Source: Dictyostelium discoideum (Eukaryota). From it: a stretch of DNA of 64,000 bases. Below the pieces are notes generated by a model. That model searched no databases. It was not told the DNA's origin and was given only the letters and a program-made list of their open reading frames with translations. Made by a program: the position numbers and the translations under genes. The stretch covers positions 2,304,001 through 2,368,000 of the forward strand of contig CM000155.2 of NCBI GenBank assembly GCA_000004695.1. Reading direction: 5' to 3'. Each line of letters starts with the position of its first letter. The first letter of the stretch is position 1. This document shows, piece after piece, positions 8,391 through 13,424 of this stretch.

Positions 8391-11300
8391 TTACATACTA
8401 ATTTCTGAACTTTTTGATTTTGTTTCAATTTTTTTAAAAGGATCATAACAATAGAGGATTGTTAAAGTTGGAATGATTTCGGTTATGATTAAACCAACAA
8501 AACTAAAAGCTATTGAAGAATGACCAGAAACCAAAACCAAAATAAAGACACAATGCAAAATAAAACCAATTGAACAAATTAAAGTGAGTAAAAATATTCT
8601 ATTATAATGTGAGGAATTGATTGAAGAACCACCTAAAGCTTTTCTTGTTTTATGCATTACAAAGAATAAACTACTACCGAGATAAACAAAAGCGGCACCA
8701 AGTAGGACGGAAATTATTGCTTGAATTACTGCATAAGTGATTGAAATTGCTTTTTGAGGAATTGAACTCTTTGCAGGAATGATAATTCTTGAGCCACAAT
8801 CATTAGTTGGATTTGATTGAGTTTTAGTGAAAACCAAACAACAAGCGATAAACAATAAATAGATGACTATATTGACGTAGAGTACCAATTTAGATACTCT
8901 TCTTGATAGACTTTCGGCTGATCTATTTTTCTTTAAAACTAAAAATACAATGACATACCAAAGTACAATGATAACAGTGAAAGCGGTAAAGTAAATAAAG
9001 GTTGGTAAAATCACAAGGATATAATCACTTGTTGGACTTCCTGCTAAGTGACCATTTGGTAGAATGAAAAAGTAGAGAGATCTCATTAGAATGAAAATAG
9101 TGACGATCAAAGTTAAACCATTAACCAATTGGAAATTTACCTTTGGTAAATTAATTTGTTTGAAAACTATAACACCCAATTGGAATATTGCCCAAAGTCC
9201 AACCAACAAGTAAAAAGTTGCCAATGTAAATAATAAACCACGAGTAGATTCATCAAAAACTTGTTTTGAAACATCATTCCAATTACCATGGACTCTAATA
9301 ACCGGGAAAAATGCTTGAACTGATGATTTTGGATTGAAATTACTAAAGTTTGAACAAATCATTAAACTACCATCCTTAGCTGTCTTATTAAATACTACGG
9401 AATCCAATATAATTAATTCACCATCAAAAATATGATAATCATCATAGTCATCATCTGTATTACTTATTAATGTTGCAAAATCATAAACTGGGAATTTTGA
9501 AGTTGTTCTTTGACTCTCTGGAATTATTGAACAAACTGTTAATTTATTAATGATTGAAAATTGAGCTTTTATATAAATACCATCACCTATTAACACACCA
9601 ACGATTGCATCTTTATCATTTAAAACACCATATTTTTCAGGTACTTGATAGGAAACGAAATTGGATGGTAAAGATTCAGGAGCTGTTGATGTGAAAATTT
9701 CTTTACTATATTGAGATATCAATAGAATTGGACAACCTTGTTTAATAGATTCACTTTCGAAAATGATTTCACCATAGTCAAAACTAAAAGTTGAACTCTC
9801 ACCAAAACAAGGTTTAGTTTGACCAACCAATGGAATTGACTCTGTGAAACATTCTGAACCACCTGAACAACTACATGAAATTGAATTTAAATTGGATTGA
9901 ATTCTTTCCATACGACAAAATGTTTCAGAACGTAAATAATCGGCGGTTAATGTATCGACTGAATTCATTAGATTAGTATAGAATGATCTATAGTTAAAAG
10001 TTTTCTTTGGATGAGAATAAGCTTTGAATGAATTATTTTCAATCCAATCAAGATTTTCAATGAAAACACCAGGTATCCATCTTGCAGCTGACCATGAAAA
10101 CATTTCAGTCCATTGATTATTGGATTGATAACAACCTGTACATTGTTGTTCATCCATTTCATTGAAACGGAAATTAAATGGTAAATTATCGGAATTGATA
10201 TCCAATATTTTACATGCCTTCTTTGATAGACATTGAGTTTTATTGATTGCAGGTGCCCACCATTTACCACCACCAATAGTCTCACATGAAATTTTATCGG
10301 TGTGATTTGGATGACTTGGGAAACAACCCATTGGTGAATCATTTTCATTATTGTAATCACAACTTGGAAAAGAACCTGTACGATATGAAAAATGACCTCT
10401 AATACATTTACCAACACCATCCGGATAAAAATAAGTATTACTACTTGAGGAAAAGAATTGATCTGAACATGTACCACCACTACCAATACAAGAATCTTTG
10501 GTTGTACATGGAACTCTTTGAACTGAACAAGTGATTGGATAACATTCATCTGGTGAATGACTTGAACAATCAATCCAACTATAAGAATTAGAAGAACAAG
10601 TCGATGGTGATGTTGCAGAAACAAATGTACAAACATCATATTGTGGATTCCATACAGCACCTGTATGAGCTGTACAATCGGTTGAATTGTATGAATTTTC
10701 AATGACACAACCAATATAACCACTACATTCATAACCACAACCATCTGAACATTGACCTAAACTTTCACATTGTTCTTTAGTTACACCCAATTGATATTCA
10801 CCATTTGGTAAAAGACATGCTGAATTTGATTTACAAGTTGTTTCATCGGTTAGTGTTGTAATTTGATGACAATAGGTTTGATTTTCACTTGAACAATGCC
10901 CACAATAGGATGTGGTAGCATCACATAATTGAGAACATGCACTACCGATTTCGTAGACTCCATAGCAAGTGGATGATTCAATTTGACAAAATCCATAAAG
11001 AGAACAATTGAAATCTGCAGGGAAATCAAACTCTTGAAAAACAGTATATAATTGGTCAAAACAAATGTCATGTTCTAAAACGCAAGATGAATCTAAACAT
11101 ACCACAGGTGGATAACAACGATCGAATTTAATTGATGGTGAAGTATAAAACATAGCATTACGAAGTATATCTGAATCGACAAATGTTTCACTAATACAAT
11201 CATCTTGAATATTTTCATTGTAAAATGATTGCACCAAACTATCATTAACTGATTGTGAAGAGATTTGAGCAAAAGCATACAATACACTTGGTGAAAGATT

Positions 11301-13424: not shown

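Follow-up and report, generated by a model that had tools for sequence, protein, structure and literature searches.

What kind of protein joins a very large, cysteine-rich secreted region to a bundle of membrane helices, and what could such a protein do in an amoeba? The question is raised by a gene in the 64,000-nucleotide stretch of Dictyostelium discoideum DNA analysed here (contig CM000155.2, positions 2,304,001 to 2,368,000; hereafter the window). The original prediction, made from the letters alone, described a single-exon gene at 8391-13424 that encodes 1677 amino acids (aa), with a signal peptide, a cysteine-rich ectodomain and seven C-terminal helices. This gene was borne out: the minus strand carries at 8391..13424 an unbroken open reading frame (ORF) of 1677 codons and a stop (8391-8393). 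The G+C content was 0.30-0.36 within the ORF and 0.11-0.21 in the flanking DNA, and a 5-kb open frame cannot have arisen by chance in such AT-rich DNA, so the ORF is real. We are very confident of the identity and architecture of its product as described below, and we lean towards the whole statement that it is a member of an amoebozoan family of giant membrane glycoproteins which acts as a binding and signalling receptor.

Pfam assigned residues 1381-1660 to PF06454, the THH1/TOM1/TOM3 family (E 4.6e-7, 30 bits against a cutoff of 25), and the match spanned profile positions 5-257 of 273 (253 positions). Four homologues also exceeded the gathering cutoff of PF06454, namely P0006 (35.6 bits), P0008 (29.9 bits), P0010 (39.7 bits) and P0085 (41.9 bits). 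By these profile matches, the seven-transmembrane (7TM) module is a bona fide PF06454 member. Homology of the C-terminus to a transporter family, which had been named as a possible refutation, is rejected.

Seven hydropathy peaks were found within residues 1392-1660, and 17-18 aa remain after them. AlphaFold2 modelling of residues 1130-1677 with an 11-sequence alignment gave helices at 1392-1425, 1433-1457, 1464-1498, 1501-1536, 1555-1597, 1604-1632 and 1638-1659, so the seven tightly packed helices and short tail of the original prediction were recovered by both approaches. The model further contained a long helix (1145-1173), a sandwich (~1199-1377) before the start of the first transmembrane helix (TM1) at 1392, and a short eighth helix after the bundle. 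Lysine and arginine clusters lie on the predicted cytosolic side, in the first, second and third intracellular loops (ICL1 KQINLPK, ICL2 LKKNRSAESLSRRVSK, ICL3 HKTRK...YNR) and in the tail, and the predicted outer loops are nearly uncharged. Such a distribution is consistent with an outer N-terminus and an inner C-terminus. The idea that the tail holds a conserved YxxPhi sorting signal was rejected, because the candidate motif YDPF is not kept in paralogues.

Plant members of the THH1/TOM1/TOM3 family are stand-alone 7TM proteins of ~290 aa located in internal membranes. PF06454 was formerly called DUF1084, and its plant members are host factors of tobamovirus multiplication. They share with the Dictyostelium protein the 7TM domain above the curated cutoff, and in both the predicted topology has the N-terminus outside, seven transmembrane helices and a fold like that of G protein-coupled receptors (GPCRs). 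Unlike in the plant founders, the domain here is the C-terminal fifth of 1677 aa, behind a signal peptide and an ectodomain of ~1370 aa. The stand-alone architecture does not define Pfam membership.

The predicted bundle has the GPCR-type 7TM fold. Pfam gave no match at E<=1 to 7tm_1, 7tm_2, 7tm_3, Frizzled, Dicty_CAR, STE2 or STE3. No Pfam match to GAIN or GPS was obtained, and no HL[ST] motif could be read in residues 1300-1391. Membership in the adhesion GPCRs is ruled out by the lack of 7tm_2, GAIN and GPS. The protein resembles metazoan adhesion GPCRs and Dictyostelium LrlA in having a huge modular extracellular region, a structured juxtamembrane domain, a 7TM domain and a short tail, but it differs from them in having neither 7tm_2 nor GAIN/GPS, and its 7TM domain is from another sequence family.

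A topology like that of GPR107 and TMEM87 had also been proposed. In a Foldseek search against PDB, the sole match at E<=1e-3 was human Wntless, a protein with a GOLD domain and a 7TM domain, which aligned over 436-460 columns across the sandwich and the bundle with TM-scores of only 0.27-0.35. The model thus suggests a layout of the GOLD+7TM type. The likeness to the GOST proteins (Wntless, TMEM87A/B, GPR107/108, GPR180, TMEM145) lies in a beta-sandwich immediately N-terminal to a GPCR-like 7TM domain, so the proposal has some basis. By sequence the protein belongs to PF06454, and it has no match to the Pfam families Lung_7-TM_R, GpcrRhopsn4 and Wntless.

In indexed homologue searches with the 7TM profile only 2 proteins were returned, as the candidate list was swamped by hydrophobic words, and with a 40-sequence family alignment only the original 9 proteins were returned. 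The indexed search identified orthologues in five Dictyostelium species (51-99% identity), as well as paralogues of equal length and architecture. A search for paralogues outside the window had been proposed, and these are present in several copies per dictyostelid genome (36-41% identity); no family paralogue was found elsewhere in the 64-kb window. When only the ectodomain was used as the profile, an exhaustive search yielded 570 cluster representatives at E<=1e-3, 285 at E<=1e-10 and 89 at E<=1e-30. Many of these matches were 1500-1850 aa long and aligned end to end, and the majority of the full-length ones retain the 7TM domain. The 7TM profile detected the bundle in 96 of the 166 proteins fetched, and further fetched proteins had seven hydrophobic segments which this narrow profile missed.

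Named dictyostelid members were from Polysphondylium violaceum, Acytostelium subglobosum, Cavenderia fasciculata and D. purpureum, the last with at least three paralogues (P0005, P0016, P0033). The other named members, which represent Variosea, Tubulinea and Stygamoeba, were from Planoprotostelium fungivorum, Protostelium nocturnum, Stygamoeba regulata, Rhizamoeba saxonica and Flabellula baltica. As judged from the matched sequences, the full architecture is limited to Amoebozoa among named sources, and there it is widespread and present in all dictyostelid groups. One metagenomic member was located on a 198-kb contig with ordinary eukaryotic genes. The domain combination, which had been singled out as deserving a proper look, is therefore the standard architecture of a large amoebozoan family, and the remark holds in so far as no Pfam family covers the ectodomain. 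Databases already tag members as "THH1/TOM1/TOM3 domain-containing protein", so the gene itself is not undiscovered. The architecture of the family, its breadth in Amoebozoa and the nature of the ectodomain modules appear undescribed in the literature searched.

Several gene models of the family were irregular. P0006, P0007 and P0012 from Dictyostelium spp. look fused to neighbouring genes: P0006 has a C-terminal extension of 1029 aa, P0007 has an N-terminal CENP-X domain, and in P0012 (3464 aa) another complete ectodomain comes after the 7TM domain at 1381-1680, so that two tandem family genes were probably merged into one model. P0011 (322 aa) is a stand-alone 7TM member.

Conservation was unevenly distributed along the protein. 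Almost all ectodomain cysteines were invariant in a 40-member alignment reaching down to 20% identity. The 7TM domain was the most conserved region, with 41% mean identity to the query versus 23-34% for the ectodomain modules. R1448 in TM2 was 100% conserved, and N1518 (TM4), E1649 and P1652 (TM7) and the TM3 stretch D-Y...LPTFxYF were 85-97% conserved. Since the 7TM domain is under the strongest constraint and R1448 is conserved throughout, a passive anchor is disfavoured. The 7TM domain is probably more than an anchor, and its conserved polar residues together with the basic inner loops would relay the state of the ectodomain to a partner in the cytosol.

The N-terminus (residues 1-21) is hydrophobic and is followed by a long hydrophilic, cysteine-rich region, in agreement with the predicted signal peptide, and the mature start EFKIKSS... 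is kept in all homologues. The ectodomain is large, as the original prediction had it, with a length of ~1370 aa. Its composition was less extreme than claimed. We counted 83 cysteines, 76 of them in the mature ectodomain (5.6%), where more than 100 had been announced. The "dozens" of N-x-S/T sequons came to 24, 22 of them in the ectodomain, against 16.4 +/- 3.6 in composition-preserving shuffles, an excess which is not remarkable. Of the regular cysteine spacings named as a sign of repeated disulfide-knot modules, CxxC and CxC occurred twice each (about 4.2 expected for each from the shuffles) and CTxxxC did not occur in the protein. The sole enriched spacing was C-x5-C (10 versus 4.2).

The repeats themselves were not recovered either. 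Self-BLAST of the protein gave no internal repeat, and low-complexity or mucin-like repeats were absent from it. Profile-profile comparison with hhalign gave one convincing duplication, that of the N-terminal beta-sandwiches (prob 83%, E 8.6e-6), and a weak hint of a repeat in the cysteine-rich part (residues 860-960 versus 950-1100, prob 45%). Tandem disulfide-knot repeats are not supported by these two comparisons, and the ectodomain is a mosaic of differing modules.

Residues 22-1200 were also modelled with AlphaFold2 (9 sequences). The helix at 1145-1185 was present in both the N-terminal and the C-terminal model. Residues 500-770 were the region most widely shared, being present also in relatives with a single membrane helix, and their cysteines were invariant across 40 family members. 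When the ectodomain was searched on its own as eight separate segments (residues 22-1392), no Pfam match was obtained at E<=5, and searches of PDB sequences with the protein and with both family profiles gave nothing meaningful.

The two N-terminal sandwiches could be linked to known domains through intermediates. At a threshold as loose as E<=5, PF04151, the PPC (pre-peptidase C-terminal) family, had no direct match in residues 115-240 or 236-365. The part of the family profile that covers the second sandwich matched 8-9 tandem units in P0111 and P0153, two proteins of ~2,500 aa, the former from the euglenid Ploeotia vitrea. Pfam calls these units PPC/UPF0669, and one isolated unit matched PPC at E 2.9e-9. 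On this transitive sequence link and on fold similarity, in a region where AlphaFold2 pLDDT (predicted local distance difference test) was only 50-76, the two sandwiches are considered to be PPC/collagen-binding-like. They are similar in fold to PPC, to the collagen-binding domains (CBDs) of clostridial collagenases and to C6orf120/UPF0669, but have no direct Pfam PPC match. PPC/CBD-type sandwiches are usually substrate-binding modules in secreted enzymes. P0111, P0153 and P0158 are single-pass proteins of ~2,500 aa with 8-14 tandem PPC/UPF0669 (C6orf120-like) sandwich units, and they are the sole bridge from the second sandwich of the family to any named Pfam domain.

A second architecture was found among the relatives. 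About 15-20 of the listed matches were proteins of 1200-1330 aa with a signal peptide and one C-terminal transmembrane helix. They covered profile positions ~450-1180, i.e. the central and cysteine-dense ectodomain, with E values of 7e-34 to 6e-22, and they were without the cap and the PPC tandem. Some of them kept the C-terminal half of the juxtamembrane sandwich just before the transmembrane helix. Pfam gave no match in the seven single-pass relatives searched. Since the core also occurs on a single transmembrane helix, it may be regarded as an autonomous binding unit.

The contigs of the single-pass relatives were compact, apparently intronless and rich in ORFans. Contig L007 (SRR13312976, gene 4175-7996) carried a deoxynucleoside kinase, an acetyltransferase and a ribonucleotide reductase large subunit interrupted by a Hint/intein. 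L004 (SRR30003474, genes 805-4632 and 4679-8485) had two members in tandem between patatin-like and deoxynucleoside kinase genes, and L003 (SRR28285704, gene 8001-11819) had ankyrin-repeat and ORFan genes beside its member. No hallmark gene of the NCLDV (nucleocytoplasmic large DNA virus) type was seen on these single-pass contigs, and three IMG/VR scans for viral relatives found none. In gene content the contigs resemble those of giant viruses, which is a lead and not a result. A member of the full-length 7TM type, P0081 (1598 aa, with a precomputed PF06454 match), was encoded at 10001-14797 of L006 (JGI 3300050184, Ga0502760_0000679), a 64-kb contig with densely packed, apparently intronless ORFans, a RING-finger gene and an amine-oxidase gene, from either a compact eukaryote or a giant virus.

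How could such a protein work? The signal peptide would send ~1370 aa to the cell exterior or to the lumen of an organelle, and this ectodomain would be disulfide-bonded and probably N-glycosylated. From the N-terminus it consists of a cysteine-rich cap, two tandem PPC-like sandwiches, a helical, cysteine-rich core, a long helix and a sandwich abutting the membrane. The membrane module is a THH1/TOM1/TOM3-type seven-helix bundle with a GPCR-like fold, short cytosolic loops and a short tail. The ectodomain may bind large molecules or particles, for instance polysaccharides, glycoproteins or prey or matrix surfaces, and ligand occupancy may be passed via the juxtamembrane sandwich to the bundle. 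There, R1448, N1518 and E1649/P1652 together with the basic ICL2 and ICL3 might engage a cytosolic partner. Candidates for this partner are a heterotrimeric G protein and, if plant TOM1 is taken as the model, a small GTPase of the ARL8 type. We hold the signalling mechanism taken alone with slightly more doubt than belief.

Several points weigh against this reading. The confidence of the C-terminal model was moderate (pLDDT 63.8, predicted template modelling score 0.51) and that of the ectodomain model low (pLDDT 53.7), so that the folds of the latter are readable mainly in its N-terminal part. The cytosolic surface is very small. Literature searches on PF06454, DUF1084 and TOM1-family GPCR candidates returned only work on plants or passing mentions. 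Split-ubiquitin assays showed no binding of plant TOM1 to GPA1, a G-alpha subunit (PMC2530877), and a 2026 preprint places TOM1 outside the canonical GPCRs, so G-protein coupling is speculative.

In another explanation the protein is a non-signalling scaffold or cargo receptor of the endomembrane system, comparable to plant TOM1 as a tonoplast scaffold with ARL8 or to Wntless as a cargo carrier. The ectodomain would then face the lumen of the lysosome, phagosome or secretory pathway, where it would bind cargo or protect the membrane, and no signal would cross the bilayer. The sequence family is that of TOM1, and TOM1 was co-purified, on internal membranes, with ARL8 and with the viral replicase (PMC3234234). 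The sole Foldseek match at its threshold is Wntless, across sandwich and bundle; TOM1 did not bind G-alpha; and the cytosolic tail and loops are tiny. On the other side, there is no Wntless or Lung_7-TM_R Pfam match, proteins that adhere or bind at the cell surface more typically have an ectodomain of this kind, ~1370 aa long and with PPC/CBD-like modules, and the sorting-type motif YDPF in the tail is not kept among paralogues. We consider this explanation unlikely, and it is the strongest of the rivals.

A structural role was also weighed. As a coat or matrix glycoprotein of the glycocalyx, the slime sheath or the cyst or spore wall, the protein would use its 7TM domain mainly as a robust anchor. 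Its ectodomain is large, cysteine-rich and sequon-bearing, and the same core occurs with a single-pass anchor, so the type of anchor is interchangeable. But the 7TM domain is the most conserved part and has invariant buried polar residues, which is unexpected for a mere anchor; the family is also present in naked lobose amoebae (Rhizamoeba, Flabellula, Stygamoeba); and low-complexity or mucin-like repeats are lacking. We judge such a role very unlikely. That an adjacent secreted cysteine-rich gene and a TOM1-like 7TM gene were read as one ORF is almost certainly wrong: some family models are indeed fused to unrelated neighbours (P0006, P0007) or hold two family copies (P0012) and stand-alone 7TM members exist (P0011, 322 aa), but the frame is open over 5034 nucleotides (nt) in a genome of ~25-33% G+C, and 40 aligned members, which represent several amoebozoan lineages, share a collinear, conserved junction between the sandwich (1199-1380) and TM1 (1392), as do transcriptome-derived proteins.

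The start of the reading frame concerns the N-terminus only. In an alignment that runs to residue 1513, the ORF product was 99% identical to the D. discoideum hypothetical protein P0001, and the differences were confined to the first ~16-18 residues. The annotated gene of P0001 spans 5557 bp and encodes 1679 aa; its model uses an upstream mini-exon, and a counterpart of this mini-exon exists in the window (Table 1). The ATG at 13424 falls within the putative intron of this model, so the description as a single-exon gene is uncertain, although the frame is open throughout. Both start models give a signal peptide and an identical mature protein (...FVKC/EFKIK...), and the annotated N-terminus of the D. 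dimigraforme orthologue is similar to that of the one-exon version. Nothing else in the analysis depends on the choice of start. The exact protein of the window is absent from the contig index because the annotated N-terminus differs.

At 4370-7642 on the plus strand of the window, two ORFs (260 aa and 776 aa) represent a PDR/ABCG-type ABC transporter gene, which runs convergently towards the 3' end of the present gene. The orthologue in contig L001 is flanked by the same neighbour, of 1466 aa with ABC_tran, ABC2_membrane and PDR_CDR domains. Another ORF of 258 aa lies in a different frame inside the gene (9968-10744, minus strand); its translation is rich in V, I, L, H and Q, and it is most likely an out-of-frame artefact of AT-rich coding sequence and no gene.

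Table 1. Features of the gene and its predicted product, with positions in the window.
Feature	Residues	Position	Strand	Remarks
Gene body, 1677 codons + stop	1-1677	8391..13424	-	ORF; 99% identity to P0001
Alternative exon 1		13896..13947	-	ATG at 13947; encodes MSKILKTIPLIFLLILN + 1 nt; exon of the orthologue's annotated model
Putative AT-rich intron, 517 nt		13379..13895	-	GTAAGT...TTTTATAG; donor starts 13895; TATAG acceptor ends 13379
Signal peptide (one-exon reading), MKIILIILIILINFIGIFVKC	1-21	13362..13424	-	Hydropathy peak 2.97
N-terminal Cys-rich cap	22-118	13071..13361	-	Conserved C64, C69, C78, C80, C88, C97, C101, C113; no Pfam match
Beta-sandwich 1	~119-240	12705..13070	-	
Beta-sandwich 2, PPC-like	~241-360	12345..12704	-	
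Linker/mixed region	361-499	11928..12344	-	pLDDT mostly <50; conserved NPLWPVP motif
Central helical Cys-rich core, part 1	500-770	11115..11927	-	Invariant DPCCN...QCC.P motif
Cys-dense region, 32 Cys	771-1100	10125..11114	-	AlphaFold2 pLDDT 64-83 at residues ~810-970
Trp-rich segment and long helix	1101-1198	9831..10124	-	CSCS...C motif at end; AlphaFold2
Juxtamembrane beta-sandwich	~1199-1380	9285..9830	-	AlphaFold2 pLDDT 75-87
THH1/TOM1/TOM3-type seven-helix bundle	1392-1660	8445..9251	-	
Short cytosolic tail, lysine-rich	1661-1677	8394..8444	-	Not conserved among paralogues

The receptor reading can be carried further. In a wider form, which we think distinctly unlikely, the family would be an adhesion-type class of amoebozoan 7TM receptors, built independently of the metazoan adhesion GPCRs on a TOM1-type bundle without GAIN, and would sense prey, matrix or cell surfaces. 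Its ectodomain core would have been exchanged with giant viruses of amoebae, which would carry it as tandem single-pass glycoproteins of envelope type. If this wider form is true, the family would also be a first way into what the plant TOM1 family natively does. Possible giant-virus homologues of the core, should they be confirmed, would matter to virus-host biology in their own right.

Even in plants no native function is known for the THH1/TOM1/TOM3 family, and whether it belongs to the GPCRs is disputed. In Amoebozoa the same 7TM module is routinely joined to an extracellular region of ~1370 aa, as one would expect in a receptor or an adhesion molecule. With this receptor-like orphan family, the 7TM surface proteins of social amoebae, so far counted as cAR/Crl, Grl, Fsl/Fsc and LrlA only, gain a class that is unstudied. 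Since Dictyostelium is genetically tractable, the family offers a direct route to what a TOM1-type bundle does, and it could throw light on the native role of such proteins.

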